Part shown: positions 34,124 through 54,797 of the stretch, piece after piece | How positions within the stretch are numbered: the stretch's first letter is position 1 | How the letters are laid out: each line of letters begins with the position of its first letter | Origin: a virus | Lineage: Duplodnaviria > Caudoviricetes | DNA: 64,000 bases | Virus record (IMG/VR): IMGVR_UViG_3300014039_000017 | Span: 82,799-146,798 of that record | Reading direction: 5' to 3' (one strand) | The notes under the pieces: model-generated | What the model was told of the DNA's origin: nothing | What the model saw: the letters and a program-made list of their open reading frames with translations, nothing else | Database searches by the model: none | Position numbers and translations under genes: made by a program

Positions 34124-34882
34124 TTAAATATTTAAATTTAAATTATATATTCTTCTATGCTGAGGGACATTAAACCATTTATTATGTGGCGAATCCATTA
34201 AATAACAAAATATTCCAGCATTTGTTATTTCTTGATAATTTTGAACTTTATCGTCTATGTGGATTTGACATTTATGTTCTTTTAGAAGATCTACTTTACT
34301 TTCATTATATGGAACGCAATAGACCGGAGCACAAGGAAACCCATTCTTTTCTAAGCATTCTTTAGTCCACTCAACAGGAATACTTCTGCTTGTAATATAA
34401 CAAGTAGGGTTAAATGTGGGAAGATTTTTAACAGGAAGATTTACCCAAAATTCCTTATCGTCCTTAACCTTATCAAGCATTTCTTTCATTTGATAAGAAC
34501 CATCCCAATAATTATTTAGCTTTACACCAAATTTAGATTCAAAACTTGGAATAAAATCCAAGCATACATCATCTACATCTAAAGACACTCTAGGTGTAGA
34601 TATGTTACCAAGAAGCCTATCATCTCCTTGTGGATATATTTTATAATATTCGCAGAGAATCAAGGCTTCTTCGGCAACATGAGCTATTTGTAATAGACCG
34701 TCTTTATCATAGTCATTACCAAGCTCAAATTCAGTTAAATGCTTTTTAAGAGACGATATAACTTCTGCCCAAGAAATACCGTACTTCCATTGATTGATAT
34801 TAAATTTTTCAAGTTTTTTAGTTAATACTTTACTAACTTCTTCTATTCCTTGAGCAGGAATTAAATCGTATCTTGTATCCAT
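34124..34882 (-). CDS. dATP/dGTP diphosphohydrolase-like N-domain fused to HAD 5'(3')-deoxyribonucleotidase-like domain
   Basis: RYDLIP...W.YGISW...H.A; LDVDDVC, ITSR and HIDD motifs. Confidence 0.72.
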   Translation of the reverse strand: MDTRYDLIPAQGIEEVSKVLTKKLEKFNINQWKYGISWAEVISSLKKHLTEFELGNDYDKDGLLQIAHVAEEALILCEYYKIYPQGDDRLLGNISTPRVSLDVDDVCLDFIPSFESKFGVKLNNYWDGSYQMKEMLDKVKDDKEFWVNLPVKNLPTFNPTCYITSRSIPVEWTKECLEKNGFPCAPVYCVPYNESKVDLLKEHKCQIHIDDKVQNYQEITNAGIFCYLMDSPHNKWFNVPQHRRIYNLNLNI

Positions 34883-34883
34883 A

Positions 34884-36182
34884 TTATATTAATGAATATT
34901 CTTTTGTTTGTTCATTATAAGCAACTTGAGGATTCCATACATAATACCATTCATCATTTATTAGAACGTAATCTTCATTATCCTCTATATAGCACATTGG
35001 AATTTCTTCTATTCTTGTTTTGTTAACGTGTACATCAACATATTTTTCGTTAATTGAAAAATTATCATTACACCATTCACAATAATGAGCACAATCTTCA
35101 CAAAGCCAATCGCCATAAAATGACGAATAACACCATCCACTTGGACCCTCATCATCATATCCGTATGCGGATTCCCCACAACAGTAACAAGTGTAAAGGA
35201 ATCTTCCCGAACCATTTAAACCACCTTCAGTATCATCGGCTGTATAATATCCGTCATCTGAATTAGTGCTTATATATTTTTTATCTTCAGTTACATATCT
35301 AAAACTATCCAGATAAGGGAAATATTCATATTCCTCATTTAAATGAATTGTAAGATTAATATATTTTGATTCAGCATAATCATCTTCTGGCCCAAACCAA
35401 TACTGCTCATCCCCAGTACTAAGCAAACTATTATTAACCCTATAATACCATTTATGTTCTTTTGCGTATTCAATAAATTGAGAATCAAGAAAATCTTCAC
35501 AAGTATAGAACCTATCCATAAATGTGCCTTCTGGGAGTTCCCAAACTATAGCTCTACCCATAAGTAGACCGTCTTTAAAGCATCCTAGCATTTTAGCGTG
35601 ATCTTCATATATTTTAAAATATGATTCACACTCTCCATGCCGCATACAACTATTACCCAAAGTTCCAGAGTCTTTATAATAATTATCAGCGTTATAATAT
35701 TTAGTTATGTCTGAACCTGAAACGAGCTTAAATTCTCCAGATTGAAAAAGTTCATTTTTAATCCAGTTGGCAAAATCCTCAAATTCTTTACATTTATATT
35801 CGTGCTTTAGAACTCTTTGAATTAGCTTAGAAGGCTTAGATTCCTGTCTTCCTTCGCGAGACCATACGCCACAATCAGAATATTTAGCCTCTTTTCCTTT
35901 AGGAAGGAATGAAATTGTTAGAGAATTTATTCTATATGTAAGCATTCTAGCCTCATCAGTAATTAGAGAATTGATAATATCAAGTAATGGTTGTACCAAA
36001 TATTTTTTATCACTTATTGGATTATATGTCAAGTCTATAACACAACTATTATATGTGTTAATACATGTATTTGCTGTAAGAATTTCTGATGCAATTTTAC
36101 ATTCAGGATGTTTTTGGTATACAGCTTCAAATATTTCTTTAAGACTATCTGAAAGTAAAGGTAATAACTTTGTATATTCCAT
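34884..36182 (-). CDS. Hypothetical protein (NSCM / GRAIVW / FPYLDSF motifs, Cys-rich C-terminus)
   Basis: 432-aa intact ORF. Confidence 0.75.
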   Translation of the reverse strand: MEYTKLLPLLSDSLKEIFEAVYQKHPECKIASEILTANTCINTYNSCVIDLTYNPISDKKYLVQPLLDIINSLITDEARMLTYRINSLTISFLPKGKEAKYSDCGVWSREGRQESKPSKLIQRVLKHEYKCKEFEDFANWIKNELFQSGEFKLVSGSDITKYYNADNYYKDSGTLGNSCMRHGECESYFKIYEDHAKMLGCFKDGLLMGRAIVWELPEGTFMDRFYTCEDFLDSQFIEYAKEHKWYYRVNNSLLSTGDEQYWFGPEDDYAESKYINLTIHLNEEYEYFPYLDSFRYVTEDKKYISTNSDDGYYTADDTEGGLNGSGRFLYTCYCCGESAYGYDDEGPSGWCYSSFYGDWLCEDCAHYCEWCNDNFSINEKYVDVHVNKTRIEEIPMCYIEDNEDYVLINDEWYYVWNPQVAYNEQTKEYSLI

Positions 36183-36183
36183 T

Positions 36184-36372
36184 TTATTTCTCTCTTAATG
36201 ATTTTATAAAAATATCAGCAAGAATTCCTACAAAATCCAAATTAGAATTCTCGTCGCAATTATTAAATTTAACATCATAATCCAAATTTCCAACTTCTTT
36301 ATCATAAGTAAGATTAATTTGGATTTCATTGTCTGAATTAACGTTTTTAAACGTTACTATGGCTTTCTCCAT
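36184..36372 (-). CDS. Hypothetical protein
   Basis: Packed ORF. Confidence 0.6.
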   Translation of the reverse strand: MEKAIVTFKNVNSDNEIQINLTYDKEVGNLDYDVKFNNCDENSNLDFVGILADIFIKSLREK

Positions 36373-36739
36373 AAGATTTAATTAAATTATAAAATAATTT
36401 TATATCCATTATAGCACATCTTCCAACTGTTACTATATTTTTTTCTTTTGGCTCTTGTTTATCTCACAAAATAACAAAAGATTCATTTGGAACTGTAGAT
36501 TGCTCTCTAATTTTAAAGTATTGAGGATAAGGTATTTGATGTTTAATTTGGATATTCATTCCAAATGGAAGTTGATTTTCAGTATCTAATACATCAACTT
36601 TATTATCATCAGTAGCTTTTGAACCTTGTCTAGAAGACATTACTTTATCAAAACCTAATTCTTTAAGTTCATTTATTACTTTTTGTTCTGCTCTGATCCC
36701 TCTACTTCTGTTATATGATCCAGATCGTCTTTTAGGCAT
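36347..36739 (-). CDS. Holliday junction resolvase-like PD-(D/E)xK nuclease (TGA=Trp)
   Basis: RG..AE...LKELGF...D...NIQIK. Confidence 0.7.
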
Positions 36740-37725
36740 AAAAACTCTTTAGCTTTATTAATTAATTCCAGAGTTTTATCTTTACCGTATTTTTTATAAA
36801 AATCTGAAATATCTTTTGCTTCGTACTTTCTAGGAATAAATACAAATTTAAGTTCTGGATGTATTCTCTTAATTCTATTCATACCTTCAATGCCCGGTAA
36901 GTCGTTATCATATCCTACGACTATATTCTTAAATTTTTGTTTAAGCCGATCTAGCTGTGAATCAGTTACAAACAGATTTTCACTATTTGGAGCAATAGCT
37001 GTAATTCCCAATTCATATAAAAGCATACAATCTTTAAGAGATTTGGTAATTACTAGTAGATTTCCTCCATTTCTTGGAAGTAACCCCTGAATTTTAGTTT
37101 TCTCTCAATTAGACAGAAATTTAAATTTATGATTATTTGGAAAGTAAAGTCTTCAAAGATCCATATTATTCTTCTTTCCTCCAAAATACCCAAATATTTT
37201 TTGAGTAGGAGTTTCCAAATGAAATAAATGCCCGTTAAGTCATATATTCTTACAAGAAAATACATTAAATCTTTTTAAAGTATTTTCTGTTATTCCGTAA
37301 GATAACCACCAATCTAGTTCGTATTGTTGAAATGGTCTAATCTCAACCTGTATAATTGAAGATTGTACTGGCTCTAAAATAGTTGACTCTACCTTGACTG
37401 GGTTAACAGCCAAAGTAGAGTTCTTAACTATTCCAAAATCATTAGCCGCAATTAGCAACGCTTTTACGAAATCACAGCTAAATTTATGTTGAACCACATA
37501 CAACCAATCCCCACAAAAATCAGAACCAAAATCTTTAACAATTAATCTTCCTTTACTATTCTTATAGTAACATACAGTAGGATTATTATCAGATCTAAAT
37601 TTAGATTTAAATAAGCCTTTACGGATTGGAACTCCATAATATGTTGCCATAAGAGTTTCTTGACTAATTCTAGATTCTATTAATTCCTTAGTTATTTTTG
37701 GAGGAATAGTTATAATAGACTCCAA
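36676..37725 (-). CDS. DNA primase (TOPRIM; TGA=Trp)
   Basis: FRSDNNP...KDFG; ITKSLKDCM; YDNDLPG; KDISD. Two track ORFs in one frame. Confidence 0.88.
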
Positions 37726-37727
37726 GA

Positions 37728-38387
37728 TTAAGCAAATGGAAGATCATCAACAGAATTATTAAGATCTTCTGATACTGCTCCTAGAATATCATCAGCAGTC
37801 TTAGGAGACATTGTTGTAGGTTTTGCGTTATTAGCAGCATCAATCTTCTTAACTTCACTAGAAGTAAGAGTAAGCTCGTGACCGATAACTCTAGTAGCAA
37901 TACCCAAATCACCACTCTTTGTAATTCTTGCAACAAAAGTTGGCATAGATACATAACCATTAGACTGAGGAACAAGCTTAATTTGAACTTTAAGCTTACC
38001 AACGGCAGGATCAGTCCACTGCTTAATAGTATCACAAATTTGTTTAAAGTTACCAGTAAGAGTCTTTGTACCAGAATCAATATCCTTTACAATCTGAGGA
38101 TCTACTGCTTCAAGAATTTCTCTTACAAGAACAAGAAAATGATCCAGCATAGACGCTGATACTCCCCACTGCATAGCTGTACGCTCATCTGACTGAGGTT
38201 CAAAGAAATTCTGTGTATATGGGCCGTATCCATCAATATCAAGCTTTAGTGCAAGCGTCTTAAATGAGTTGCCATCTTTCTGACTAGTCTTAGTCTCAAA
38301 AGCAACTCCCATAAAAGTAGCATCTTTAATTCCTGCCGTAAGCTTACCAGCAGACTCTACAACCTTCTGTGCAAAATTAAAATTCAT
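37728..38387 (-). CDS. Putative single-stranded DNA-binding protein
   Basis: Acidic DDLPF tail; lies between Sak4 and primase. Confidence 0.7.
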   Translation of the reverse strand: MNFNFAQKVVESAGKLTAGIKDATFMGVAFETKTSQKDGNSFKTLALKLDIDGYGPYTQNFFEPQSDERTAMQWGVSASMLDHFLVLVREILEAVDPQIVKDIDSGTKTLTGNFKQICDTIKQWTDPAVGKLKVQIKLVPQSNGYVSMPTFVARITKSGDLGIATRVIGHELTLTSSEVKKIDAANNAKPTTMSPKTADDILGAVSEDLNNSVDDLPFA

Positions 38388-38399
38388 ATAAATTAAAAA

Positions 38400-38825
38400 T
38401 TAGTTTAAATCAATATTTTCGTTTAATTCATTTAAGGAATCAATTTCTTCTTTAAGAGGATCGATTTCTTCAATTCTCTCTACTTTTTCCATTTTAAGAT
38501 AATTCTTAAAAGGAACTAGTTTAAAGAAACTGCCGTATTCTTTCAGAATTGTATTCTGAATTCCTCTAAACGATACGGTCTTAGATTTCGTTAGCCTATT
38601 TCCATTAATAGAGTCTTTACATATTAATGGGAATGTTGTTTCTTTATCTACATTTCAATATGTAATAGCTATTTTATCTCCTGGAATAGCTCCAAGAGCT
38701 TTAACCGCTTCTTTAGATAACACAAGTCTTGAATTATCCACTTCTACAGTAGCTAAATCTTGATTATATGAGATATCAGAAACTTTATCTTCTATTGGTA
38801 GTTTAGGTAATGTGTAATTAAGCAT
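38400..38825 (-). CDS. Hypothetical protein (TGA=Trp)
   Basis: Readthrough of TGA 38655 fills the gap to TAA 38400. Confidence 0.65.
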
Positions 38826-39498
38826 TAAACTCGTTGATTTTATCAATTACATACTGCATATCATTAGGAATAAGCATAGTATCAAAACAATCAATTGGAG
38901 TTTTTGCTGTTGTAGAACCATCAGATTTAGTTATAAATGAATACACAGTATTATTCTTATCGTCTGTTGAAATATTAGTAAATAGAACATAGGTAAACAA
39001 ACCTTCTACAGTAATAAGATTATCGATCATCTTACCTACAGTTTTAATTTTATACTTAGGTTCATCTGCTGTACCAATATTTTCAGAATGACAAGAAACT
39101 ATAATATTCAAATCATCTCGCATAGAAATAGACTCTTTAAGAATAGAATAAAATTTCTGTGCGATTTCAGTAAATTTATCAAAACCTCTTTCCTTAGCTC
39201 TATCCATAGCTTCAAATGCCATTAGATATTGAGCGTCGTCAATTATAATATTCTTTATTTCTAGACGTTTCTGGTCAATATAAGTAAGCATTTTATTAAT
39301 TGTGCCTACATCAGAAGTTGAAATATAATTACCAGTTGGATTATCTTTATTAAATGTAGTATAGTTAGTTTTCCATCCTCTAAAAGGTAGAGGTTTAGAT
39401 GCTACATTAATAATAAAGGTTTCCTTTGGATTAAGAGTTCTAAAACTTGTACTTTTACCTGAACCTGAGTTTCCTACAATTGCAATAAGATTAGCCAT
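38818..39498 (-). CDS. Sak4-like P-loop ATPase / ssDNA annealing protein
   Basis: GNSGSGKST, IIIDDAQY and AKTP motifs. Confidence 0.82.
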   Translation of the reverse strand: MANLIAIVGNSGSGKSTSFRTLNPKETFIINVASKPLPFRGWKTNYTTFNKDNPTGNYISTSDVGTINKMLTYIDQKRLEIKNIIIDDAQYLMAFEAMDRAKERGFDKFTEIAQKFYSILKESISMRDDLNIIVSCHSENIGTADEPKYKIKTVGKMIDNLITVEGLFTYVLFTNISTDDKNNTVYSFITKSDGSTTAKTPIDCFDTMLIPNDMQYVIDKINEFNA

Positions 39499-39501
39499 AA
39501 T

Positions 39502-41838
39502 TTAAAAATGATATTGTAATTCTTTTTTAGACTCTTTTTGAGTCTGATCTTCTATTTTTGTTTTATTTGGGTTTATGTTTTGATTGTCAAGGCTTAGATA
39601 AGGACGCCAATCAGTAACTTGTTTAGGGGGCGGCAATTGTCGAAATATACCTAATTCTCCAAAGAAGTTTACAGGAATTACTCTATCTGATACTCCTTGG
39701 CGGTTTTTTAGTAAACAACAAATTCTGATACGATCTCTTAACCCTAAAAATGGATTCTGTTGTCCAGAATCTTCTACAATTACTGGGTATCCTTGATATG
39801 ATTTTAATTTAAACTTTAGAGGATAGTAAACTCCAATACATACTTCACACAATTTTGTTATCTTCACAGCTCTTTATCTGTGAAATCTATATGTTACCAT
39901 ATAGTTCAGACTATATCTTCTCTTTTTTTAGAGTTGCTCCGTTTTCGTGGTAGATTTATATCCTCGACTTTACGTTAGGAATCACTACTAGTCGTTAGGC
40001 ATTTTCCTTTATTTCTAAAGGGTTTAGCACGGGATTGTCCATTTTTGGAGTTTCCCCGTTTAGCGGAGTTTTACAACGACTATGTAATTTATATTTACAA
40101 CAATCTTGTATATAAGGAATTATTAGATTTTCAAATAATTGTGCAGATTTAGATTTTATATAGAGTCTATTATCACTATGAATAGCTGTATAGATGTTAT
40201 ACTTATATAAAAACATATCTTGCATCATTTTAATTTCAGATTTAGTAAAGCAATTAGTAGCTAAATAATAACCATTTCCAGTAGCTTTAAACCCATCATC
40301 TTGAAATCATATAGCTAAACCTAAAGGTTTTATAGAATTTAACATTTCTTTATTTATATATTTAATTTTTTTATCACCTTCTATTTTATAAAACATATTA
40401 TAAAATTTTCATAAACATTTATTTTGTCTAGAATGAGCTGTATATAAATAATAAATTTTATTTGTTCTTTTATCAAATTCTTTAGTTAAGAAAAATGATT
40501 TAAATAAAGGCTGCATCTGATCAAACTTTCATTTACAGTAATCTTTTTGTTTTGGAGAATGCCCGAAAATTAAATAAGGGGTTTCTGTGCGATTAGGAGT
40601 TATCATACATGAATCTCCTAAAAGACCTCCTATAATTATTTGATATTGATCATCAGTTAATTCTATTTCCTTTAGAAAATTTGGTTCTAATCCAAGTTTG
40701 TTTCTATAATCACAAACTCTTTTAGATGGAATTTTAATTATTTCAGAAATTTCTGGATCGGTTAGACCTTTGTTATAAAGATCCATAAATTTATCATAAT
40801 CAAAATTTCATTTAATTCTAAAATCTGCAAGTGAAATATTATACTTTTTACACCGAGCATATAAAGTACCATATTTTACATTTAATAAATCTAACATTTC
40901 TTTTACGCAACTTGATTTCTCTTTTGCGTTTTCAATTTCTTTTTTAGTTAAAATAAATTTTTCCATATTTTATATATTTTTAATTTTTATATACAAATAT
41001 AGTAAAAAATTATTCTTTTTAAAGAAACTGGATAATTTTAATATAAATTTCGTTTATCGTTAAACGGACCTCCAGAATCTTTGAGACCGTCTGGGGAACA
41101 TTCTGTCATACCAGCTTTTACCCTATCAATATCAGATGAATTTCTATTCTCTTGTTGAAGAATAGTAAACGATACGCGACATTTTTCTCGAATAGAAACA
41201 CAGTACGAAGAGATTAAATCGATTTCTTCTTTTTTAGAGTGATTATCAACAGATTGGCACAATCCGATATGATCTATAACGACTTGAACTATTTGAGTTG
41301 GATCGTTTTTAATATATATTGTTTGCTTACCATCATTTATAGGCTCAAATGTTCCTCACTCTTCTAATAAACTCATTAAAGAATGATAGAAAGATTTATT
41401 ATTAAGAGATTTATCAAATATAATAAACTTCTTCTCAATAGATTTTAATCAGTCTTTTCCCTTTTGTACATATATATAATTTTCATCAGAAAGTTTATCC
41501 TGCCATGACATAAGTGTTGTATAAGGTATTATCTTTCCAAATTCTTCATATATATACATGCATAGAAGCTTAGATAGGAGTATTGGAGCTGACATTTCCA
41601 AACTATAATACGCAATAACAATATTAGCGTCTGGATTATCCTTTAGTGGCCTATAAATATAGCTATAAAGCGCTAGGGCAGTCTTTCCAGCCCCAGAAAG
41701 TCCAAAGATTAACGTATATATTCCAGAACGTACTCCACCTGTGTATTCATCAAGTTTTGGAATTCCGGTACTAAATCCTTTATTTTTACCTTCTCGACCT
41801 TGATCAATTGTCTTATAAAGAATATCTACATTAGTCAT
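39502..41838 (-). CDS. DnaB-like replicative helicase, 2 exons (41838-41056, 39849-39502), TGA=Trp
   Basis: GLSGAGKT, YSLEM, VIDHIG, QQENR, LKDSGGPFND|CEVCIGVY and LKNRQG motifs. Confidence 0.9.
39995..40966 (-). CDS. LAGLIDADG homing endonuclease (TGA=Trp); C-terminus overlaps ribozyme core
   Basis: IIGGLLGDS; LAI-W-FQDDG. Joins track ORFs 40529 and 39995. Confidence 0.88.
40994..41001 (-). promoter_or_regulatory. -7 element (TATATTTG) upstream of intron #5 endonuclease
   Basis: 27 nt before ATG 40966. Confidence 0.55.
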
Positions 41839-42427
41839 CCATTAAACAAATATTATTAGCAACTTTGATCTTATTAGGATCATCTCTCAACTCTTTTAAC
41901 ATTTCCCACTGATGATTACCAACAAAATTTATAAGTGAAAAATTAACATAATTATTCTCTATTCCTCATCTTAATATATCCATAATCTCAGCATGTTTAT
42001 CTGGATTATGACATATTTGAGTACCATACCAAAAATAAAATTCATCTAAATCAGTAAATTTCTTAGTAATATCTCTCAATGGAACTAATTTTCCATTAAT
42101 TTCAACACTTTTTGGATAAGTATTGAAGAGTTCACTACCCATAAATCCTGATTCTTTAAAAAAGCGTTTAAGAAAGTTTTTATTAAATTCTATATCATTA
42201 CAAATATAATTATCTGTATTATAAGATTTTAATATAACACCTTTCTCTTTTAAGGAATTAAATAGATCTCTTAATCTATTTTTTCCTCCATTTTCAAATC
42301 ATTTATTAAAATATGTAATATTACCACCATTTTCTATTCTAGCAATATACGTTACATAAACTAACAATAATTCTTCGGCAGTTAAATTATATTCTGCCAT
42401 TATGTTTAAGATTGTATTTAAGTTCAA
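41831..42427 (-). CDS. Hypothetical replication-cluster protein (missed by track; TGA=Trp)
   Basis: Open frame from TTG 42427 (or ATG 42400) to TAA 41831, interrupted only by TGA; fills the gap between the helicases. Confidence 0.65.
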
Positions 42428-42497
42428 TTTAAATAAATTAAAAGAATCTATTTAAATTACAATGTTTAAAACTTTTACGTGTGCATTGTATTAACTT

Positions 42498-45076
42498 TTA
42501 AAATCTATTTTCATAATCAGTTATAAAATTCATAGGTCTTGTTTCTACTTTTTCATAGTTTAAGACCTTTTTTAATTTATCTTCTGAATCTATAACAATA
42601 TAGTCAGAAGTATTGCTATTTGCAAACCATTTTAATTCTTGAGTGTCTGCAATAACAAGAGTAAACATTTCAGCTGTTTTACCTGGCTCAAATCTACAGA
42701 TTCGGCCTGATTGTTGAACCGCAGTTATTTTAGAACTATTTATGTTCATCCTAACTCCAACAGATAGCCCTTTTAAATCTACGCCTTCATTTAAAGCTTT
42801 AGAGGAATTCAATACACCTGAAGCAGAATTATTAAAATCTTCTATAGCTTTTTTATTTTCAGATTCCTTTTTACCTGAATGAAGAGTTGTTCCACGTTTA
42901 ATAGATTCTGCAAATTTAATTGTAGGGCAAAATGTAATGCATTTTTTATCTTTACGTGCATCTAGAATCATTCTACAGGTTTCTATCTTTTTAGGATGGT
43001 TTTCTATAAAATCTTTTCTAGCATGTAAAGCTTTCATTCATTGCGCAGATTGAGCTAATACTTGTTTTGGATTACTTCCAATTTCTTTAGCATATTTATT
43101 GCGAAACTTCCAATCTTGCAAACATCCCATCGCAATTTTAAAATCTCATTGAAAGAACGCAAAATAACTATTAAATTTCTTATTTAATTCTTTATATTGA
43201 GTTAAATCAACATTTAAAAGAACTAAATAATTTTTAACTGGAGCAACCCAACCATTTTTAAGCGCTTCATCTAAAGTGATTGTGTCACATACAGGAGCGT
43301 ACTTTTTTATTATTATTTCCTTTCCATCAAGTCTCTCAAGCGTTGCGGTTAAACACATAATAAATGTATAATTAACAGCTTTAAATAACTCTGAAAAGGT
43401 GTCTGAAGCCATTCTATGGCATTCCATTTATATTAACTTATACTTTCGCATAAGATTAGACTATATCTTATTTATAATTACTATAAATTTTGCTATTTCC
43501 AAATACTGTTGTTGTGCATATATGCGCAATATTTGTACTCCTAAAAGGATAGTCGTTGAGCCTACATCCTATAAGGATGTTTGGTTGCGGATTTCCCAAT
43601 CTTTTTCTTTTTTACTATACTGAGGTAATTATTCTCACCGTTATATATGTTGCCATTATAATTTAGTAGAAAAAGCTCTAAGGGAGTTCCCGACAATTAA
43701 GCAAATTTAAAGTCAACAAATTATTCATCGACTATAAGTAAGTCAGTATTTCACTGCTTTTTTATCACTGTGTTAATAACTTCAACATCACAATTTTGTA
43801 TTAATCCAAAATTCATTATAGAAGTTAATCACTGCTGTTTTAAAAAGGTTGTAGGTACAACAACTAAAACATTTAATGTAGGACGTTTTTTACAAAGGAG
43901 TTTAATTGCTTTTAAGGCTGTCCGGGTTTTCAGTTTTGTTATCCTAAAGGCTTTTTATCCTTTAGCTCTATATATTTCTATATAGCTCGGCGTACATTTT
44001 CACCCACTTATTTCAGTTGGGGTGTTGAGCACTCTTGGGAACATTATATTCTATTTATAGGTTCAGTTCCTACGCTCTACGGTGACTAATTATATTATTA
44101 ATTAGTTTACCTCGGTATTATCCGTTAGGACTTTTACCGATTTTGCTCAATAAAATTCTCTCATTCTTGAGGAGATCGGCTTTCTTGTTTAAAGAAAGTA
44201 TATTTTAAATATTTTCTTTTAAGATATACTGTAGAATTGTTATAAATATAATCTAAAAACTTAAATGTATCTTTTAAGCTAAAATATATAATTCAAGTTT
44301 CATTTGAATGTCGTTTATCATGTAAAAAATTTATATTAAAACCAGAATATTCTCCAATTTTAATTAAAAACTGTTTTGTCCCAATAATTGAAATATTAGG
44401 AGATACAATTGTTTTACATATATGTTGAGAAAAACATCCATCTCCATCAAAATATCCACGAATAAAATGCCGAATTAAGTTTTTTGATTTAAATATTGAT
44501 TCTTTCGGAAAATTAAGAGTTAAAGATTTATTCGGAGTGCAGCCATAATTGTTAAGAATTGTTCATAAATGTTTATTCGTAACACATCATCTACATCTTC
44601 CAAAAACTTTATCTTTAATCTTACTTTTACTTATTTTAATATTTTCCCCGTTATATCCAACAAATTTATTAAACTTATATAAATGTTCGGTATCCTTTTC
44701 GCACAAAGAAATTTCAAAAGTATAATGCGCTTTTTTATTTTCTATATTAGCAATATATCCATCAGCGTATATAAATCCTAATCAGTATGCTTTTTCTTCA
44801 GCATCAATAGAATCAAATATATTTTCATTAAATTTTGATATATTTCATCTATTAATAATTTTTATTTTAGCACTTTTAATTATTTTAGTAATTTCTCATC
44901 TAGATACATTTTCTATTTTAGCTAATTTACTTAATGAATATCCATTCTTGTAATCACTTATAATATCAATTCTATTTCTCATATAAACCTACCCCAGTGG
45001 CATAACATATTGAGCCACAGCCTTTTACATTAATTCACCTTTTTATTCCAAGTTCTTGTCGTTCATCCCTAGTCAT
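42498..45076 (-). CDS. SF2 (DExH) helicase, 3 exons (45076-44987, 43930-43727, 43424-42498), TGA=Trp
   Basis: Spliced ATGVG|KT (motif I), VVVPT, LIVD|ECH (motif II), LTAT, LNEGVD and QQSGRICR. Confidence 0.9.
43425..43726 (-). mobile_element. Group I intron #6, ORF-less (302 nt), in DECH motif
   Basis: GTCGAT| ... TAAATG|GAA. IGS GTTGACT (43711-43717). AATTGTCGGGAA, AATCCGCAACCAA, ACGACTA and AAGATATAGTC. Confidence 0.92.
43931..44986 (-). mobile_element. Group I intron #7 in Walker A of SF2 helicase, with LAGLIDADG homing endonuclease
   Basis: GTAGGT| ... AAAACTG|AAA. AAATCGGT/ATACCGA P4; variant P7 GAGCGTA/TACGCC. Confidence 0.87.
44134..44982 (-). CDS. LAGLIDADG homing endonuclease (missed by track; TGA=Trp)
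   Basis: KAY-W-LGFIYADGY and HFIRGYFDGDG. Ends TAA 44134. Confidence 0.88.
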
Positions 45077-45987
45077 TAAAACTGTTTATCGCAATTCATA
45101 CAATCCTGTGTAGTGCATTTATTACAAGGAATATCATTATTGTAATAATCACTTTCACTAGGATAGTCATCTATATAATTTCTATAATAAGTAGAAGAGA
45201 TATAATTTGGTTTTTGTTTCTCTATTGTATAATATTTATTATTTTCATCTAATGTCTTAATAATATCATGCATGAAATTAAGACAATTTTCAAGCCAATC
45301 TACATTACATGACTCGGCATAAAAATGTTCATTTAAATATCCGCAACTTATATTAACTCCAGAAATACATAATTCTTCCGCAATTACACCTATATCAGTA
45401 AATGTACCAGTAGATTCTTTATATCCATATTTAGACATTACGTCTTTAATATCTTTTACAAAGTCTTTACTAGCAGAATTAATACCATTAGTGTGAGTAA
45501 TCAAATCGCTTTTACCTCTTCTGTCTGCCTGAAGCATATATCTTACATTGGAAAAGAATGATACGTTATCGGCAGCTAATTTAGCACCAATACCACCAAT
45601 CTCCTCTTGAACAGTAAAACATACTTTAAGATCTGGGAGAGTTTCTAGGAGCTGCAATGCACAACAAATTCCATTAGAATCATCTGCATTTAATCCACAT
45701 TGCAATCCAGACTTTATATAACGTGCAGTAATAACTCCATTGTTATATACAAGTTCACGATTCCCATAAAAAGAATTAACACCATCTAGGTGAGCAACTA
45801 TACAAGCATAATCATCTACATCGTTAGTGTTCTTAGTAATAAAAAGATTTCCCTTTTGACCTATTTCAAATGTCAAATTAGGTATCTTATAACAATAATT
45901 TAGTATAAAACTGATCATGTCATGTTCAAATTCTGACTCATGATCAATTAAAAATAATCTTTTAAGTAGTCTTAAATTTAGTTTCAT
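45076..45987 (-). CDS. M20/M28-family zinc peptidase-like protein
   Basis: VAHLD, NADDSNG, QEEIG, DRRG, TD and GY..EH motifs. Confidence 0.82.
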   Translation of the reverse strand: MKLNLRLLKRLFLIDHESEFEHDMISFILNYCYKIPNLTFEIGQKGNLFITKNTNDVDDYACIVAHLDGVNSFYGNRELVYNNGVITARYIKSGLQCGLNADDSNGICCALQLLETLPDLKVCFTVQEEIGGIGAKLAADNVSFFSNVRYMLQADRRGKSDLITHTNGINSASKDFVKDIKDVMSKYGYKESTGTFTDIGVIAEELCISGVNISCGYLNEHFYAESCNVDWLENCLNFMHDIIKTLDENNKYYTIEKQKPNYISSTYYRNYIDDYPSESDYYNNDIPCNKCTTQDCMNCDKQF

Positions 45988-47874
45988 TTAAAATAATGTA
46001 AGTTGCTCTGTTTCTAAAGCATTTATTATTTTATAAATTTCATTCTTATAATAAAGATAGTTTATATGTTTATCTTTAGTTGATAGATTATCAAATTTGT
46101 TAAGTAATGTAACAGAAGAAGAACTGCATAATGTTGTAGGTCTTATTTTTTTTCCGGTATAATCCATCTCATATTTTATAAGTGATGAACCATATTTAGA
46201 CATATAAAATCTATTAATTCTAGTTACTTCTTTTCCACCGTACATTACGTGAAATTTCTTATCCACTTTTTGATAAGTGCAAAACTCTCTTATATCATCA
46301 GAATTATATAAAGTTTCTTCAATAGGTATTTTATCAACAAAATATTTACAAATTGTTTTAGGAATAATTAACGGTTGTAAACCTTTACCAAGAGTTGGAG
46401 TGTCAATAAATATTCCTTTCTTCTTTATAAGAGATGAATCTTTTGTTTTGTTATAACCTTCTTTTACAGCAATATAATCATTTATAGCAAATTGATACAT
46501 GGCTTCAAAATAGTCCGCTTCCATTGTAAGTAGACTAAATTTTTCAAAAGATTTAATTATATCATTTGCTTTATCTAGCATATTTCGTTTAATTAAAACA
46601 AAAATTCCATCGGTATTATATTGAATAATTCTACAATTAGTTCCTAAAATAAGCATTTCTGCTAACTTTAAAAGAAATAGTTGTCCGTTCATCCTAATTT
46701 TCATTACAGACTTTGGATCGTATAATCATGAATACTCTGATTGCATATTCCCCGTAGCGGAGTTTAATGCAAGTTTAAGAGTTTCATTCTTAACTTTATT
46801 TCCATTATGTTTAGCTTCTATTCTTTCCTCTCTAATTTTTTTATATACATTTAGAAATTCTACACCTAAATGTTGAGGATAAAATTCGTAACTAATTAAT
46901 AATGAAGGATATAGCGACATCGCATCTCAGTCTACAAGAATTTCATCGTCGGTAGGAATTATAATCTCAGGTTTACAAATATTATGTAACCCACCTACTC
47001 CAATGGAAATCAATGAGTTATAAAAATAAAATTGTTTATTTCAACCTTTAATTCCAGGGCTAACAGTTAATTCTTTCATTTCATTTAAAAGGTCTTGTAG
47101 AATTTTAGTTTCAAATGAAATTTTAGGTAATATTACCTCATTTAATTTAACCTTATCGCGCGGAGATCTTAAATCTTTAATATCTCCTCAAGTTTTTCCT
47201 GTAGCTTGTAAATATTTTGTTTTTAGAATTTCTTTTCCAATACCGACACCATCAACGCTCATAACATTAACTCCGTATTCATCATGAATACCAACACGTA
47301 AATCAATGTCTTTTTGTTTTAATTTTAATAGTTGGTATGTTGAATTAACATCATTATGATTATATGCAATTACATTATCAATTTCAGATTCAGATATATT
47401 AGAATTAAAATCCCCTTCGTATTCTTGAACGTTAGGATATTGCATTGTTACTTGTAGTTCTTTTAATCCACAACGTAATTTTTGAGAAAACATCATTGTT
47501 AATAAATCAAAAGATGGAAAGCAATGTGCATGCTTATATTTTGCTCAAGAATCAAATTTATCTCCAGAGTTTATAATTTCATCACTAAATTTTTTTAATT
47601 CTCTAGTAACTTCTCATACTGGTTTTTGAGATAATATATGCTGATTTAAAATTATATAATTAATAACAGGATCGTCATAATGTCGATTGTTATACCCGCA
47701 TCAAATAATGCCAGAATTACTAAATGTAGATACAATAAATCCTAATTCGTTTTTTCTATTACTTATTTCATAAGTACCAATTTTTTCTGAATTGGTATTT
47801 AAAATTGTGCATGTAAAAAGATTTGGAAATATTTCTACATCATAAACAAACACAACTTTATTATAAAGTAACAT
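45988..47874 (-). CDS. DNA polymerase family B (TGA=Trp)
   Basis: VYDVEIF and GYNNRHYD exonuclease motifs; D-W-DAMSLYPS, KLALNS.TG, YNTDG and KKKG. Three track fragments in one frame. Confidence 0.93.
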
Positions 47875-48737
47875 TACTTATAAGAAGGTATATTCAGTGT
47901 AATCTCTTTAAGTTTTGCTACTTGCTCAATATTACTCTTAATAGTTTCCCACCTTTTAATGTGATAATCAGTGTCAATATCAAGTAACAAGAATACTTTA
48001 TCTCTGAATACCCTAAGAGTTTCAGATGGAAGTGAAGAAATTCTAGGATTTGGAGTTAGATGCAGTAAAAGTCTAAATTCTGAATAACTAAATCCCTTAA
48101 TATCAACCCTAAGTCTTATATCAGGATTAATTACCATTCTTTCTTTAATTACATCAAGCCAAGGCTTTTGTTTACCATTATCATCAAGTTCAGTAAGCTC
48201 CTTCTTTTCTTCATCAGTAAGCCAAATTCCCTGAGTAATGATAAAATGTTCTGAAATCATTTTACGATTAATTACTTCAAGCTGATCCAAACAAGCAGCA
48301 ATAAGATCGCCAAATTTTACTGTAGAATACTCTTTAGGAAGATGATCAAACATAACATCTACAGTATTATCATCAGTAAGATTGTTTTGCTTCTTAAATG
48401 AATTGACTGCTTGAACAAGCTCAAGAGGAGTCTTAATAATATCAATAGAACACTCATGAAGCAAATATCTCTTTAAAAGCTCTGCGTTACAATGTGCTAT
48501 AAATACTTTAATATTCTCTTTAACTGTATATCTACCTGGAGTAAACTTACTTTTATTATAAAGCATATCACAACAATGATGATAGGCTTTATTAAGCATT
48601 ACTGAATCCATATCAACTAGACGAGTATCTCTACCGTCTTTTGACTTTCATACAGCCTGATTAATATCAGTTTTCTTATTATTAATTGCGTTTGACAATG
48701 TTTCTCCAAATTCTGTAACTTTTTTCTCTTCTTTCAT
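47874..48737 (-). CDS. Hypothetical protein (TGA=Trp near N-terminus)
   Basis: Track ORF extends to ATG 48737. Confidence 0.7.
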
Positions 48738-48739
48738 AT

Positions 48740-49060
48740 CTAAAATTTATATTCTTTATTTTTATCTTTTACTTCATCTTTTATTTTAACAAAATTCATA
48801 AAATAATAGGCAGTATATTTATATTGCTTATATTCATTTGTATTAGCTTCCAGATAAGAGTCTCCAGCCTTAGCAAATTCATAAGTAATAAACCCTATAT
48901 CACCTATTTTAAGAGGCTCTGGACAATTTCAATTAGGGCATTTAGTTACAGTAATATATCTATATTCATTATTTTCTTGTAAGTCAAGATTTTGAAATAC
49001 ATAATTACTATAACAACCGTCCTGAAACGCCACTATTTTAGCTCTAATCGTGAATTTCAT
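48740..49060 (-). CDS. Hypothetical protein (missed by track; TGA=Trp)
   Basis: MKFTIRAKIVAFQDG...CPN-W-NCPEPL; ends TAG. Confidence 0.65.
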
Positions 49061-49238
49061 CACAAAGTCTATCTATAGTTTCAAGATTTCTCTTAATTAT
49101 TTCTATAGAATCCTGTATAAGAAGAACTCTTGTATTGATTATTTTCTTCAAAGTATCAATTTCATCTTTAATAGAAATTTCGATTTTTTCTTCAACTTTA
49201 GGCTCTTCTATAGCAGTTTCATTTTCTTTAAACTTCAT
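49044..49238 (-). CDS. Hypothetical coiled-coil protein
   Basis: Packed ORF. Confidence 0.55.
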   Translation of the reverse strand: MKFKENETAIEEPKVEEKIEISIKDEIDTLKKIINTRVLLIQDSIEIIKRNLETIDRLCDEIHD

Positions 49239-49606
49239 TATACCACGTGAATTCTATAGATACACTCATGAAGGTCTAGCTGATATTGATTTTCTAGAAG
49301 ATTATACAATTTACTAGAAATAGTATATTTATGTCCACTAATAAATAATTTCATAATAAAATCATCATTAGTAGTAAAATATCTCAATATATCTTTATCA
49401 TCAAATTGAATTAATCCTTCTTCAAGAATAAATCCAGTTTGTTCAGAAAGATATATAGAATCAACCATGCCTTCATTATATATATCTAAATGTTCAATAA
49501 ATCTCTCAATTCTCGGATCAAGAATTAAATCAGATGGATTATCATGATTTAAATCTGGATACCAATGTTCACCAAGTTTCTTAAATACTAGATTTACAGA
49601 TCTCAT
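49238..49606 (-). CDS. Hypothetical protein
   Basis: Packed ORF. Confidence 0.65.
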   Translation of the reverse strand: MRSVNLVFKKLGEHWYPDLNHDNPSDLILDPRIERFIEHLDIYNEGMVDSIYLSEQTGFILEEGLIQFDDKDILRYFTTNDDFIMKLFISGHKYTISSKLYNLLENQYQLDLHECIYRIHVV

Positions 49607-50039
49607 CTTCAGGAATATTTAAACACGTTGCACTATGTGTACAATATAAATCCGCCATATTATTAAATGTATTGTTTTCGTGACCTTTTACTCAGACCAT
49701 AGTAACGTTATGATATGATAATAAATTAGTTAATTCTAATCATAAATCTAAATTCTTTTTAGAAAGGTCTGATTTTTCAATTCATTTAAAACAAGATTCG
49801 GAGTTTATACTACCAACAACATATTGTGAATCGCTATAAATAGTAATATTTACAGACTCTTTAAAATATTTTAAAGCTTCAATTACAGCTCTAATTTCAC
49901 ATCTATTATTGGTAGTATATTTCCAACCTTGATATAGCTTTTTTATTATTTTCCCTTCTTTTAAAATAATTGCAGCTCAGCCTCCAGCTTTTATAGAATC
50001 TTGATAAGAACCGTCTGTATAGGCTTCATATGAATCCAT
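49581..50039 (-). CDS. rnhA: Ribonuclease HI (missed by track; TGA=Trp)
   Basis: YTDGS...GG-W-A; TTNNRCE; YSDSQYV; NLDL-W; W-VKGH...N.MAD. Confidence 0.92.
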
Positions 50040-50389
50040 TACGGAATAAGAGTTTCCATAAATTTATATTCGATAGATTGACAGATTCCTATAAATACAC
50101 TATGAACCTCTCTATCAACTTTAATTACGGTATAAGGATCTTTATAAGCCCTCTCTTCAGAAAGACGTTTGCCAATTGCTTTTACAAAAGGATCTCTATG
50201 CGAACATCTAGATACGCCAATAGAAAGTTCATTAGTATCATGGTCATAAATTCCACAAATTGTAAGTCTTGGGAGCATTTTAGACTTTTTTACATCCTTA
50301 ATAGGCTGAATTGCCCCGTTAGGAGATGTAAGTACACTCATAGTTCTCATACGATAATCAGGAGTGTAATAATACCTAATCGTTTTCAT
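50039..50389 (-). CDS. Hypothetical protein (RCSHRDPF.K.IG family)
   Basis: Packed ORF. Confidence 0.65.
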   Translation of the reverse strand: MKTIRYYYTPDYRMRTMSVLTSPNGAIQPIKDVKKSKMLPRLTICGIYDHDTNELSIGVSRCSHRDPFVKAIGKRLSEERAYKDPYTVIKVDREVHSVFIGICQSIEYKFMETLIP

Positions 50390-50768
50390 AATTTTGTTTT
50401 TTATAAATTAATAATAACCAAATAATTATAGCATATATTATTGCTTGAATTATATATCCTAAGCCTAAAAGAACTGCAATTGCAACCATAGACCAAACTA
50501 ATATTGCAGTAGTGAGATTATGAACACTTTTATCTTTAAATATAAGTCCAGCACCTATAAAAGATACTCCAGATATAATCTGCGCTATTACATGATAATC
50601 AACTGTGCCATTGTCAGTAAATGAAGCCTGTGTAAAAGCATAAGCGCCTAACATAGCAATTGCTAGCGATCTAAATCCAACTGCTTTACCAGATTTAGCT
50701 CTTTGTCGACCTATTATATATGCTATTCCAAGCAATAATATTAAACTAACCAAGTCTAACCAATACAT
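50376..50768 (-). CDS. MgtC/SapB-family membrane protein
   Basis: IGRQR...VGFRS...AQIISGVSFIGAGLI...LTTA..W. Confidence 0.85.
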   Translation of the reverse strand: MYWLDLVSLILLLGIAYIIGRQRAKSGKAVGFRSLAIAMLGAYAFTQASFTDNGTVDYHVIAQIISGVSFIGAGLIFKDKSVHNLTTAILVWSMVAIAVLLGLGYIIQAIIYAIIIWLLLIYKKQNYEND

Positions 50769-51030
50769 TATGATTTTCAGTTAAGATAAAGTCGGAGATA
50801 ACGTAATTATCAACTTTATCTCCAATTGTAAGAAATGGCCCACCATCAAAGTCTATAAAATTAATTTTAGTATAGTCTCCTGGCTCTGTTCCAATTCTTA
50901 AATATCCGGACTCTGTAGAACATTCTTTTAAAGAATTATCTATTTCATATAAATCCGAATCTTCAATTTGAATTAACCTACGATTCCACGGACTATCACA
51001 ATGCCCTTTAAGTTCAATTATATTTCCCAT
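50746..51030 (-). CDS. Hypothetical protein
   Basis: Packed ORF. Confidence 0.6.
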   Translation of the reverse strand: MGNIIELKGHCDSPWNRRLIQIEDSDLYEIDNSLKECSTESGYLRIGTEPGDYTKINFIDFDGGPFLTIGDKVDNYVISDFILTENHNVLVRLG

Positions 51031-52610: not shown

Positions 52611-52612
52611 AA

Positions 52613-53704: not shown

Positions 53705-54119
53705 TTAAAAATTGATTTTGTGTTGATTCGTCCCAATCAGAAAATAATTCTTCATCACCTAAAGAATCTTTCATATAAAGAGAATTATTTTTTATATAAA
53801 ATTCATACTCTTCTCCTTGTAAAGTTCACTTTCATATTCCCGATTGAATAAGTCTATATCTAAATTCCCCTTCAGTTATACTAATAATCTTCTGTTTTGC
53901 TAGTTTATGATAATTAGTATCAATATCAATAAGTTCCGGATCGTATTTAAGTAAAATTTGTCTAATTGTCTTTTTAGATGGATTACCTAAGGCTCTTTGA
54001 ATTTCTCCGTAAGAATAACTGTTGTTCCTAAGTGCCAATATAGCTTTTTCTAACTCTGATGCATCTTTATATTGAGATACTAAGTCAGAATATTTATCTA
54101 ATATTTCTTTAAGTTTCAT
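53667..54119 (-). CDS. Hypothetical HTH-like protein (TGA=Trp)
   Basis: SYGEIQRALG. Two TGA readthroughs extend it to TAA 53667. Confidence 0.6.
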
Positions 54120-54583: not shown

Positions 54584-54622
54584 AAAAAATACTCGCCTAA
54601 AAATTAATTTAGACGAGTATTT
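54584..54622 (-). terminator. Terminator downstream of suppressor tRNA
   Basis: AAATACTCGTCTAAA/TTTAGGCGAGTATTT stem with T-run. Confidence 0.75.
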
Positions 54623-54645
54623 AAGTTAATATTTTGTAATAATAG

Positions 54646-54716
54646 CGGGGTTTTAAAGGCTCGAACTCTAACTAATTGATTTGAAGTCAATTGTGCTACC
54701 ATTACACCAAAACCCC
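54646..54716 (-). tRNA. Opal suppressor tRNA, anticodon UCA (tRNA-Trp-like)
   Basis: GGGGTTT-TG-GTGT AATGGTA GCAC-A-ATTGA CT[TCA]AA TCAAT-TAGT-TAGAG TTCGAGC CTTTA-AAACCCC-G; short variable loop; G73. Confidence 0.93.
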
Positions 54717-54766: not shown

Positions 54767-54797
54767 CAAATATAACAAAATTTTTTATCTTGTCAAA
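54767..54797 (-). promoter_or_regulatory. Bacteroidota-type promoter for suppressor tRNA
   Basis: TTTG-N19-TATATTTG. Confidence 0.72.

Follow-up and report, generated by a model that had tools for sequence, protein, structure and literature searches.

Positions 36347–50039 of the window (the whole 64,000-nucleotide stretch analysed here, which is the end of a linear 146.8 kb record of estimated 84% completeness) very probably form the replication module of a large gut-type crAss-like phage in which TGA is translated as tryptophan by a phage-encoded tRNA(UCA), an instance of the published phage code-switch with an earlier switch point. The usual account of stop-codon recoding in gut phages is that it holds back late and lysis genes. 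Here an entire set of replication enzymes is recoded while individual neighbouring genes are not, and replication is predicted to depend on the suppressor, a dependence that appears conserved in relatives.

A recoded replication module

The in-frame TGA codons that a sequence-only reading had listed in primase, DnaB, SF2 helicase, PolB and RNase H are present in the translations, whose homology runs across them, and those in ligase, NrdD, NrdG, thioredoxin and dNMP kinase are equally real; the codon numbers it gave for thioredoxin, SF2 helicase, RNase H, NrdG and ligase are all correct (Table 1). Its resolvase is less secure, as the TGA of orf130 stands but the identity comes from one RusA-like PHROG match. 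Full-length replisome enzymes are impossible under the standard code, with PolB alone containing seven TGA, the first at codon 58, so the proposal that replication is conditional on the suppressor finds support. For annotation, this means that the standard code breaks the replication module into fragments.

Table 1. Features of the replication module, the suppressor tRNA locus and other recoded enzymes (window positions).
Feature	Positions	Strand	In-frame TGA	Match or remark
dNMP kinase	15188-15895		2	
Thioredoxin	22051-22311		codon 12	
Ligase	23461-24654		first at codon 27	
NrdG	27102-27614		first at codon 22	
NrdD, two pieces			3	
orf130, possible RusA-like resolvase	36347..36739	-	codon 92	phrog_244 E=1e-3 only
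DNA primase (Toprim)	36676..37725	-	3: codons 162, 191, 207	phrog_12622 E=6e-40; Pfam Toprim_2
Probable SSB	37728..38387	-	none (2 TGG)	OB fold, C-terminal DDLPF tip
orf148	38400..38846	-	codon 64	weak AbrB/MraZ-like fold
Sak4-like annealing ATPase	38818..39498	-	none (1 TGG)	phrog_2872 E=2e-58
DnaB exon 2	39502..39849	-	none	
LAGLIDADG homing endonuclease ORF in ~1.2-kb DnaB insertion	39995..40966	-	4 of 4 Trp codons	Pfam LAGLIDADG_2 E=3e-28
DnaB-type helicase exon 1 (261 codons)	41056..41838	-	codons 130, 161	Pfam DnaB_C E=4e-11; phrog_19
orf198, partner gene directly upstream of DnaB	41831..42427	-	2	
SF2 helicase exon 3 (codons 100-405)	42498..43421	-	2	Helicase_C E=9e-14
SF2 helicase exon 2 (codons 31-99)	43724..43930	-	2	Pfam ResIII E=3e-6; ends at DE of motif II
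LAGLIDADG homing endonuclease ORF in first SF2 insertion	44134..44982	-	7 of 7 Trp codons	Pfam LAGLIDADG_1/3; phrog_4645 E=5e-54
SF2 helicase exon 1 (codons 1-30)	44987..45076 (boundary approximate)	-	codon 14	ends inside motif I
M20/M42-like peptidase	45076..45987	-	none	phrog_4191 E=5e-46
Family B DNA polymerase (PolB), 628 aa	45988..47874	-	7 of 7 Trp codons (58, 87, 110, 229, 278, 316, 383), zero TGG	phrog_1252 E=1e-131, residues 5-623
orf287	47874..48737	-	codon 30	
orf122	49238..49606	-	none	no family or atlas lead
RNase H, 152 aa	49581..50039	-	4: codons 21, 86, 100, 116	Pfam RNase_H E=3e-29
Terminator-like hairpin, 15-bp stem + T run, directly 3' of tRNA	54587..54622	-		
tRNA, anticodon UCA (opal suppressor, Trp type)	54645..54716	-		ARAGORN; Rfam tRNA 64 bits
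Sigma-70-like promoter match (TTGACA, 16 nt, TG-TATATT), upstream of tRNA	54769..54796	-		consensus match only

Three genes, DnaB, SF2 helicase and NrdD, are split. The three SF2 exons, which together contain five TGA with the earliest at codon 14, are colinear with residues 1–30, 31–99 and 99–405 of an uninterrupted 405-aa ORF in a related locus (L013). A 121-aa TGA-free ORF (39502-39867), formerly taken as free-standing, is the 3' exon of DnaB, and homologues of the two DnaB exons are contiguous in four related loci (L001, L005, L018 and L076). Two TGA-bearing ORFs within 36347–50039 are LAGLIDADG homing endonucleases and not parts of the replisome. The product of 37728–38387 is probably an SSB, given a structure model (pLDDT 59 overall, 70–90 in the core) for which Foldseek places PrgE on top (prob 0.99, E=2e-3), followed by RPA and SSB chains.

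Several observations indicate that TGA is read as tryptophan in this phage. Codon 12 of thioredoxin provides the W of the WCxxC motif, codon 116 of RNase H is W116 within WVKGH, and at PolB codons 110 and 229 the relatives without in-frame TGA have TGG in 62/62 and 61/62 cases, respectively. Conserved genes (PolB, primase, RNase H, helicases, NrdD/G, ligase and thioredoxin) are full-length on TGA read-through, and because family matches and alignments run across the TGA codons, as in the PolB match, the TGA-bearing ORFs are not chance openings. A purine follows sense TGA in 75% of cases and T in 20%; T follows 58% of true stops.

The suppressor tRNA and the phage

The phage encodes the matching suppressor, a tRNA(UCA) on the same strand as the replication module and upstream of it. 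Its best annotated match is the tRNA-Trp of crAss-like phage cr111_1 (88% over 50 nt), a likeness that further supports tryptophan as the meaning of TGA, and its discriminator base, from the sequence, is G. It is not a Sec tRNA, since it measures 72 nt and lacks a long variable arm. The tRNA has its own strong promoter-like site, which at 11/12 is joint best in a 20-kb scan, the other 11/12 site lying on the plus strand, and which is the sole site there with a perfect TTGACA and a TG before the second hexamer; the consensus is the general sigma-70 one and not of Bacteroidota type, and the match could be due to chance. With this site and the hairpin behind it, the tRNA gene looks like a separate transcription unit, open to its own regulation.

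The phage is a large crAss-like phage, and its genome size, introns and endonucleases, and signature proteins liken it to the Zeta type. PolB is 46–50% identical to cr52_1, cr4_1 and other crAss-like phages (best matches ~49%), and the portal protein matches portals of crAss-like, Cellulophaga phi14:2 and Flavobacterium phages, the nearest being faecal phage records at 43–46% identity; PolB and portal thus provide homology to crAss-like signature proteins. The record also has the features of the large-genome Zeta type (145–192 kb, abundant introns or homing endonucleases, and in some members a DGR reverse transcriptase), with at least seven endonuclease ORFs and one reverse transcriptase. Only two tRNAs occur on the record, which is an estimated 84% complete, and further tRNAs or code-change genes could lie beyond it.

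Distribution of TGA across the genome and among relatives

The genome divides sharply in its use of TGA. Among 20 curated genes upstream of tRNA(UCA), none of 55 Trp codons is TGA, which is absent there in frame even as a stop, though common out of frame, and none of the 23 Trp codons of a conserved four-gene island at 32344–36372 (the PDDEXK / dNTP-diphosphohydrolase island) is TGA either. The replication module has TGA at 35 of 54 Trp codons (0.65; replisome families alone 0.68) and the late (virion) block at 282 of 393 (0.72), and TGA-bearing ORFs make up 12/18 (about two-thirds) and 45/62 (about three-quarters) of the two, respectively. The module does not differ from the late block (p=0.34), so that a switch affecting late genes alone can be rejected, but differs strongly from the genes upstream of the tRNA (p=7e-10). 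For five further codon pairs that end in A or G (Lys, Glu, Gln, Leu TTR, Arg AGR), the A-ending member makes up 73–92% in every module. In the recoded class, TGA is an ordinary synonym of TGG, used near the level of neutral codon bias.

A subset of genes is thus kept compatible with the standard code, and this is conserved in relatives. The TGA-free class comprises the 20 genes upstream of the tRNA, a chaperonin/AAA/MgtC group, orf122, the peptidase and the four-gene island; the TGA-using class comprises RNase H, PolB, both helicases, primase, most nucleotide-metabolism genes, all homing endonucleases and the virion block. The two are interleaved at single-gene resolution. While SSB and Sak4 do lack TGA, as had been remarked, they have one or two Trp codons each, which is compatible with chance (P=0.07), and Sak4 homologues in relatives do carry TGA. 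Similarly, the observation that TGA often falls early in genes is literally correct but does not exceed chance: permutation within genes yields P values of 0.12 (minus-strand block), 0.33 (module) and 0.5 (genome), and the first Trp codon of a gene is TGA no more often than later ones.

Of 80 PolB relatives in IMG/VR, 20 carry in-frame TGA (2–8 each) and 60 carry none. Pooled over 10 recoded relatives, which are non-redundant but phylogenetically dependent on one another, TGA accounts for 169/217 Trp codons in replisome families (0.78) and 3/108 in the avoiding, interleaved families (Fisher p=5e-43). Gene by gene, orf122 is TGA-free in seven relatives as well (0/16 Trp codons) and the peptidase in four (0/11), while the conserved orf198 has 21 TGA to 3 TGG and orf287 has 15 to 21; conserved islands have TGA at 1/38. 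The layout of recoded and TGA-free genes is the same in L001 and L013, and in these two loci and L024 a same-strand tRNA(UCA) precedes PolB by 7–8.6 kb. A recoded replisome beside TGA-free neighbours is retained at 50–59% PolB identity.

Timing of the code change and alternative explanations

Cultured crAss-like phages infect Bacteroidota, in whose code TGA is a stop. Because TGA is absent from the upstream genes and the island while other codon pairs are 73–92% A-ending, the host evidently reads TGA as stop at the start of infection. TGA-free genes would then be translatable by an unmodified standard-code host, and TGA-bearing proteins would be completed only once the suppressor tRNA, presumably charged by the host TrpRS, competes with release factor 2 (RF2). 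Codon use and gene order suggest the sequence TGA-free genes, tRNA, replisome; as the replisome proteins would need the suppressor, genome replication would start downstream of its expression, and the switch point would precede the replication genes rather than the late genes.

A host that itself uses code 4 would leave nothing dependent on the phage tRNA and nothing gated, and the sequence-only reading had named it as a finding that would overturn its proposal. While the 30% G+C content and the fact that translation with table 4 leaves all TGA-bearing genes open are what such a host would give, we consider it highly improbable. A phage of a code-4 host would use TGA in all gene classes, yet 0/55 and 0/23 stand against 0.65–0.72 elsewhere in this genome, and this avoidance (1/38 in the islands of relatives, against 65–78% elsewhere) would go unexplained; moreover, the phage carries its own tRNA(UCA), 60 of the 80 PolB relatives do without any in-frame TGA, and PolB and portal relatives are crAss-like phages. 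A dedicated checkpoint or carrier-state switch, as originally suggested, would have selection keep TGA in the replisome so that replication proceeds only above a suppressor threshold and the phage otherwise idles. The dependence is indeed absolute and multiple (seven TGA in PolB, five in SF2 helicase, four in RNase H), is conserved at 50–59% PolB identity while neighbouring genes stay TGA-free, and involves a tRNA that could be regulated independently. However, the replisome TGA share equals the neutral A-ending share (0.68 here, 0.78 pooled), which gives no sign that selection favours TGA rather than simply not opposing it, and TGA shows no bias to early codons. The late genes show as much recoding, so that the replisome is not singled out, and a general family scan of ~85 proteins returned neither a lysogeny or carrier-state gene nor any integrase or repressor family. 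Those crAss-like phages in culture that infect persistently are not known to depart from the standard code. This explanation seems unlikely to us.

The partition could instead reflect protein yield or accuracy and not time, if UGA costs product through RF2, such that genes of high or exact output avoid TGA and the low-copy replisome tolerates it. This would suit the scattering of TGA-free genes among recoded ones rather than in one early block, the presence among the avoiders of a chaperonin, typically abundant, and the suppression-favouring contexts of sense TGA, which imply that RF2 competition matters. It is nevertheless rather unlikely, as the virion block, expected to include the most abundant proteins, shows the highest degree of recoding (0.72), and the tRNA gene marks the sharpest boundary, which suits timing better than yield. 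The code-switch with an early switch point accounts for that boundary, although the gene-by-gene interleaving of TGA-free genes is not predicted by a simple block-wise temporal switch. More tentatively, and with some doubt on our part, the two codes may, in this crAss-like clade, be allotted gene by gene and held over deep divergence, tRNA(UCA) acting as a translational early-to-middle switch that licenses replication, if the TGA-free set is what is needed before the tRNA. All core replisome enzymes would then be suppressor-dependent, with the interleaved orf122, peptidase, chaperonin, AAA, MgtC and PDDEXK/dNTP-diphosphohydrolase island strictly TGA-free, and the switch would come one step earlier than the late/lysis switch proposed so far. 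The partition provides a concrete list of candidate genes for what must be made before the code change.

Comparison with known systems

The premise that recoding concerns late genes only is outdated. The Zeta-group crAss-like cMAG OLWB01000021 has a PolB with multiple in-frame TGA (Yutin et al., 2021, PMC7886860, Fig. 7c), and like the phage described here it combines a crAss-like family B polymerase that needs suppression at several TGA with recoded adjacent intron ORFs; its group shares phage suppressor tRNAs and high intron density. In contrast, its PolB is in four pieces, whereas in the present phage PolB is a single ORF and the splits affect the helicases and NrdD.

Borges et al. (bioRxiv 10.1101/2021.08.26.457843; Nat Microbiol 2022) described the use of alternative code in replication machinery as 'variable', and as mostly alternative in Lak phages. 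Their code-switch model resembles the present case in its early genes compatible with the standard code, its phage suppressor tRNA and its later recoded genes, an order that here is suggested by codon use. In their crAss-like and Agate worked examples, however, replication genes are in standard code, whereas here they match the late genes in degree of recoding, with single TGA-free genes set between recoded ones. The Lak megaphages, whose replication genes are mostly in alternative code (legend of Fig. S5 of the preprint), differ in recoding TAG, in belonging to another phage lineage and in genome size (>500 kb).

Phage Lera and its relatives, the proposed Echekviridae (Babkin et al., 2025, PMC12386605), likewise have a large crAss-like genome in which TGA means Trp, with a tRNA(UCA), a DGR reverse transcriptase and homing endonucleases, and TGA occurs in their RNA polymerase and in a helicase; no close match to Lera was among the top portal matches listed. 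While ~18% of Lera ORFs carry TGA, mostly structural ones, here it is about two-thirds of the replication module and three-quarters of the late block, and Lera has 26 tRNAs as against two on our incomplete record. The principle is already published, and this genome is a further, well-resolved example of the phage code-switch, in which a whole replisome can fall under recoding while single neighbouring genes stay readable by the unmodified host.

Replication genes and their TGA codons

Read with table 11, the stretch from 36347 to 50039 falls into short ORF pieces; read with table 4, it is a compact row of minus-strand genes (see table). Family searches, from which the gene names are taken, placed in-frame TGA in both replisome and nucleotide-metabolism genes, as the sequence-only reading had reported, and every codon number it gave agrees with ours. 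Its SSB and Sak4 genes are indeed free of TGA in this phage. Where it had a resolvase there is an ORF with a borderline RusA-like match, so a resolvase is possible at most. Two TGA-bearing ORFs of the stretch are LAGLIDADG homing endonucleases and hence lie outside the replisome, while NrdD, NrdG, ligase, thioredoxin and dNMP kinase are encoded outside the stretch itself.

Features of the window, with in-frame TGA codons
Feature	Position	Strand	TGA codons and remarks
Early region	50376-63541	-	TGA-free
tRNA-Gln(UUG)	58016-58087	-	
Promoter-like site	54796-54769	-	near-consensus; flanks tRNA(UCA)
tRNA(UCA)	54645-54716	-	G discriminator
Terminator-like hairpin	54622-54587	-	strong; flanks tRNA(UCA)
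First TGA-bearing ORF past tRNA(UCA)	53667-54119	-	codons 96 and 98
RNase H	49581-50039	-	4, first at codon 21
orf122	49238-49606	-	none; between heavily recoded replisome genes
Family B polymerase (PolB)	45988-47874	-	7, all its Trp codons
M20/M42-like peptidase	45076-45987	-	0; flanked by heavily recoded replisome genes
SF2 helicase, three pieces	42498-45076	-	5, first at codon 14
Homing endonuclease ORF (LAGLIDADG)	44134-44982	-	7/7 Trp codons
orf198	41831-42427	-	2
DnaB-type helicase, two pieces	39502-41838	-	2
Homing endonuclease ORF (LAGLIDADG)	39995-40966	-	4/4 Trp codons
DnaB 3' exon, 121 aa	39502-39867	-	TGA-free
Sak4	38818-39498	-	0
orf148	38400-38846	-	
Probable SSB (orf219)	37728-38387	-	none
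Primase	36676-37725	-	3
ORF with RusA-like match	36347-36739	-	
Island	32344-36372	-	TGA-free
NrdD, two pieces	29344-30627, 27614-28597	-	
Homing endonuclease ORF (HNH/I-HmuI-like)	28695-29180	-	2/2 Trp codons
NrdG	27102-27614		
Ligase	23461-24654		
Thioredoxin	22051-22311		codon 12
Homing endonuclease ORF	17786-18736	-	4/4 Trp codons
dNMP kinase	15188-15895		

The orf219 product is probably the SSB, judging from its predicted OB-fold core, which in structure comes closest to SSB-like PrgE, RPA and SSB chains, and from its C-terminal DDLPF tip. Homologues of orf219 and of its neighbour orf148 occur in L005, L013, L018 and L076 (IMG/VR loci with relatives of the phage's PolB), and the consensus of these adjacent families has an acidic, LPF-tipped tail (DxLPF; TDLPF) that resembles the SSB C-terminus. 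Here the tip survives in orf219 (DDLPFA) but not in orf148, whose acidic tail lacks LPF and whose predicted model bears a weak likeness to AbrB/MraZ-type barrels. The record, estimated to be 84% complete, gave no match to PolA or Pfam-SSB, and orf122, orf287, orf107 and orf198 stayed without a lead after a look through a protein atlas and weak searches against PHROG and Pfam.

TGA is read as tryptophan

Judged by alignment, TGA stands for Trp, and neither for Gly nor for Sec. The thioredoxin TGA is the W of WCxxC, RNase H codon 116 is the W in WVKGH, and the seven PolB positions fall on W or an aromatic residue among 12 aligned polymerases. Codons 110 and 229 of PolB are TGG in 62/62 and 61/62, respectively, of the IMG/VR relatives whose PolB has no in-frame TGA. 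Glycine (code 25) was ruled out because the codons align with Trp, as was selenocysteine, for which the tRNA, at 72 nt, also lacks the long arm.

Only two tRNA genes were found on the record, both on the minus strand: tRNA-Gln(UUG) and the Trp-type opal suppressor tRNA(UCA), whose best annotated match is the tRNA-Trp of crAss-like phage cr111_1. Neither an RF-1-domain protein nor a TrpRS was matched in the record at its estimated 84% completeness. Over the whole record, the base following a sense TGA is a purine in 75% of cases (A 48%, T 20%), as against A 33% and T 29% after TGG (chi-square p=5e-5), while T follows 58% of true TAA/TAG stops; the sense-TGA context looks tuned for read-through.

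TGA usage across modules and within genes

Trp codons were counted per module on a curated gene list. The TGA share is 0/55 (0.00) in the 20 genes upstream of the tRNA, 2/7 (0.29) in the genes from the tRNA to RNase H, 35/54 (0.65) in the replication module, 0/23 (0.00) in the island, 34/87 (0.39) in the remainder of the minus arm and 282/393 (0.72) in the late (virion) arm. Five further A/G-ending codon pairs (Lys, Glu, Gln, Leu TTR and Arg AGR) are 73–92% A-ending in each module, so that TGA in the replication module stands near the level expected of a plain synonymous codon. Its share is not statistically different from that of the late arm (p=0.34) but contrasts sharply with that of the upstream set (p=7e-10). 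The zero shares are strong avoidance; upstream of the tRNA, TGA is absent even from the stop position, although it is frequent there out of frame. Two TGA-bearing ORFs that code 4 would place upstream of the tRNA (58315-58821 and 59819-60349) were discarded as table-4 calling artefacts; standard-code ORFs without TGA (58315-58770, 58773-59006, 59819-59998 and 59985-60407) occupy the same space.

The earlier suggestion that TGA often falls early in these genes did not hold as a bias. When TGA and TGG labels were permuted within genes, which respects each protein's need for Trp at given sites, TGA lay no nearer the gene start in the minus arm (P=0.12), the module (P=0.33) or the genome (P=0.5), nor was the first Trp codon TGA more often than later ones. 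The early TGA of thioredoxin is simply its active-site Trp. Likewise, for genes with so few Trp codons (one or two), the module has no more TGA-free members than chance allows (P=0.07).

Interrupted genes and homing endonucleases

The DnaB and SF2 helicase genes both contain insertions, as seen from colinearity with uninterrupted relatives. The three SF2 pieces are colinear, and in order, with a single 405-aa ORF of L013; the first insertion (~1.05 kb, with a LAGLIDADG ORF) lies inside motif I and the second (~300 nt, no ORF) inside motif II (DE|CH). Homologues of the DnaB exons are contiguous, with no gap, in L001, L005, L018 and L076, and the insertion here is ~1.2 kb with a LAGLIDADG ORF. 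The NrdD pieces (27614-30627) correspond to Pfam NRDD positions 2–254 and 263–562 and are separated by the HNH/I-HmuI-like ORF. No group I intron model of Rfam matched, whether the whole window was searched (E<=0.01) or 39800-45100 at a looser cut-off (E<=10). All Trp codons of the four homing-endonuclease ORFs are TGA, even where the surrounding gene or island uses TGG only; adaptation of these mobile elements to the phage code is complete.

The record and its relatives

The window is the final 64 kb of a virus record of 146,798 bp (30% G+C), which may be incomplete, being classed as 'linear' by IMG/VR with a CheckV completeness estimate of 84%; no terminal repeat was found. There are two gene arms, a plus-strand arm from 1 to ~97.7 kb of the genome, with portal, tail proteins, giant proteins, a reverse transcriptase and homing endonucleases, and a minus-strand arm filling most of the window. 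PolB is 46–50% identical to that of named crAss-like phages, and the portal matches those of crAss-like, Cellulophaga phi14:2 and Flavobacterium phages. By size, intron load and reverse transcriptase, the phage would fit among the large 'Zeta-type' crAss-like phages. The reverse transcriptase gene (genome 40525-41766, plus strand, in the virion arm outside the window; phrog_1423, E=3e-108) has 6 TGA and probably belongs to a diversity-generating retroelement, such as has been described for Zeta crAss-like phages. The public sequencing runs listed as containing the sequence include no RNA run, and the DNA runs contain small shares of it only.

Relatives came from an alignment-based scan of IMG/VR, a single-protein scan of viral contigs having given no match. 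The comparison set comprises 80 loci at 46–59% PolB identity, the closest PolB relatives (80% identity) standing outside it. In-frame TGA occurs in PolB of 20 of the 80 loci (2–8 each), and TAG in none. As here, tRNA(UCA) lies 7–8.6 kb upstream of PolB on the same strand in L001, L013 and L024. L001 and L013 share the layout of TGA-free genes, tRNA, TGA-free AAA protein and chaperonin, then recoded RNase H, polymerase and helicases, with a TGA-free peptidase among the latter; island-gene homologues of L013 are also TGA-free.

When ten non-redundant recoded relatives are pooled, TGA accounts for 169/217 Trp codons (0.78) in the replisome families (RNase H, PolB, SF2, orf198, DnaB, primase) and for 3/108 (0.03) in the avoiding families, namely orf122 0/16, peptidase 0/11, chaperonin 1/10, MgtC 1/7, island 1/38 and upstream genes 0/21. 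Fisher's test gives p=5e-43, which overstates independence given the shared ancestry of the relatives; at their divergence, synonymous sites should nevertheless be saturated. Avoidance in the island is kept in relatives, and so reflects selection and not recent import. Sak4 is not among the protected genes, its homologues in relatives containing TGA.

The island lies directly downstream of the recoded module and encodes a PDDEXK/DUF3799 nuclease-like protein, a protein bearing the N-terminal domain of dATP/dGTP diphosphohydrolase and two other proteins (432 and 247 aa). Neither orf122 nor the peptidase uses TGA, here or in relatives. The early region has host-like functions: a GroEL-type chaperonin (526 aa, with zero Trp codons), AAA ATPase, MgtC-family protein, IMPDH/GMP-reductase-like protein, metallophosphatase and LDH/MDH-like dehydrogenase. 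The ORF at 53667-54119 would yield 95 aa by the standard code or, if suppressed, 150 aa with a plausible-looking tail; the product could have two forms, the suppressor determining which.

Replication probably conditional on the suppressor

The Trp-type tRNA(UCA) gene follows a TGA-free gene block and the genes fall into two codon classes, an arrangement that suggests an order of events. The unmodified host would translate the TGA-free genes; tRNA(UCA) would be made next, charged by host TrpRS and competing with RF2; and only afterwards would the replisome, nucleotide-metabolism enzymes, homing endonucleases and virion proteins be completed. No second polymerase able to bypass this dependence was found on the record, so that replication would be conditional on the suppressor, as had been proposed from the recoded replisome.

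The proposal went on to a checkpoint or carrier-state switch acting on the replisome. Such a switch would be an extension of suppressor dependence, but nothing in the codon data marks out the replisome or points to selection keeping TGA there; on codon usage, it behaves as a gene set freed from selection against TGA, exactly like the late genes. A host that itself uses code 4 is very unlikely, given the pattern of TGA avoidance. For the TGA-avoiding genes, a yield-based account is a further rival to suppressor-dependent timing.

Comparison with known recoded phages

Yutin et al. [quoted passage not shown] In a preprint, Borges et al. propose that a code switch regulates late and lysis genes; they state that the replication machinery uses the alternative code variably, and in Lak phages mostly. 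For phage Lera, Babkin et al. (2025; PMC12386605) describe TGA in a helicase and RNA polymerase and also note stop codons within 'DNA-processing enzymes'. The present phage is a further, well-resolved example of this published recoding, to which it adds a quantified, neutral level of TGA use in the replisome, the lack of positional bias of TGA and a conserved gene-by-gene mosaic inside the replication module.
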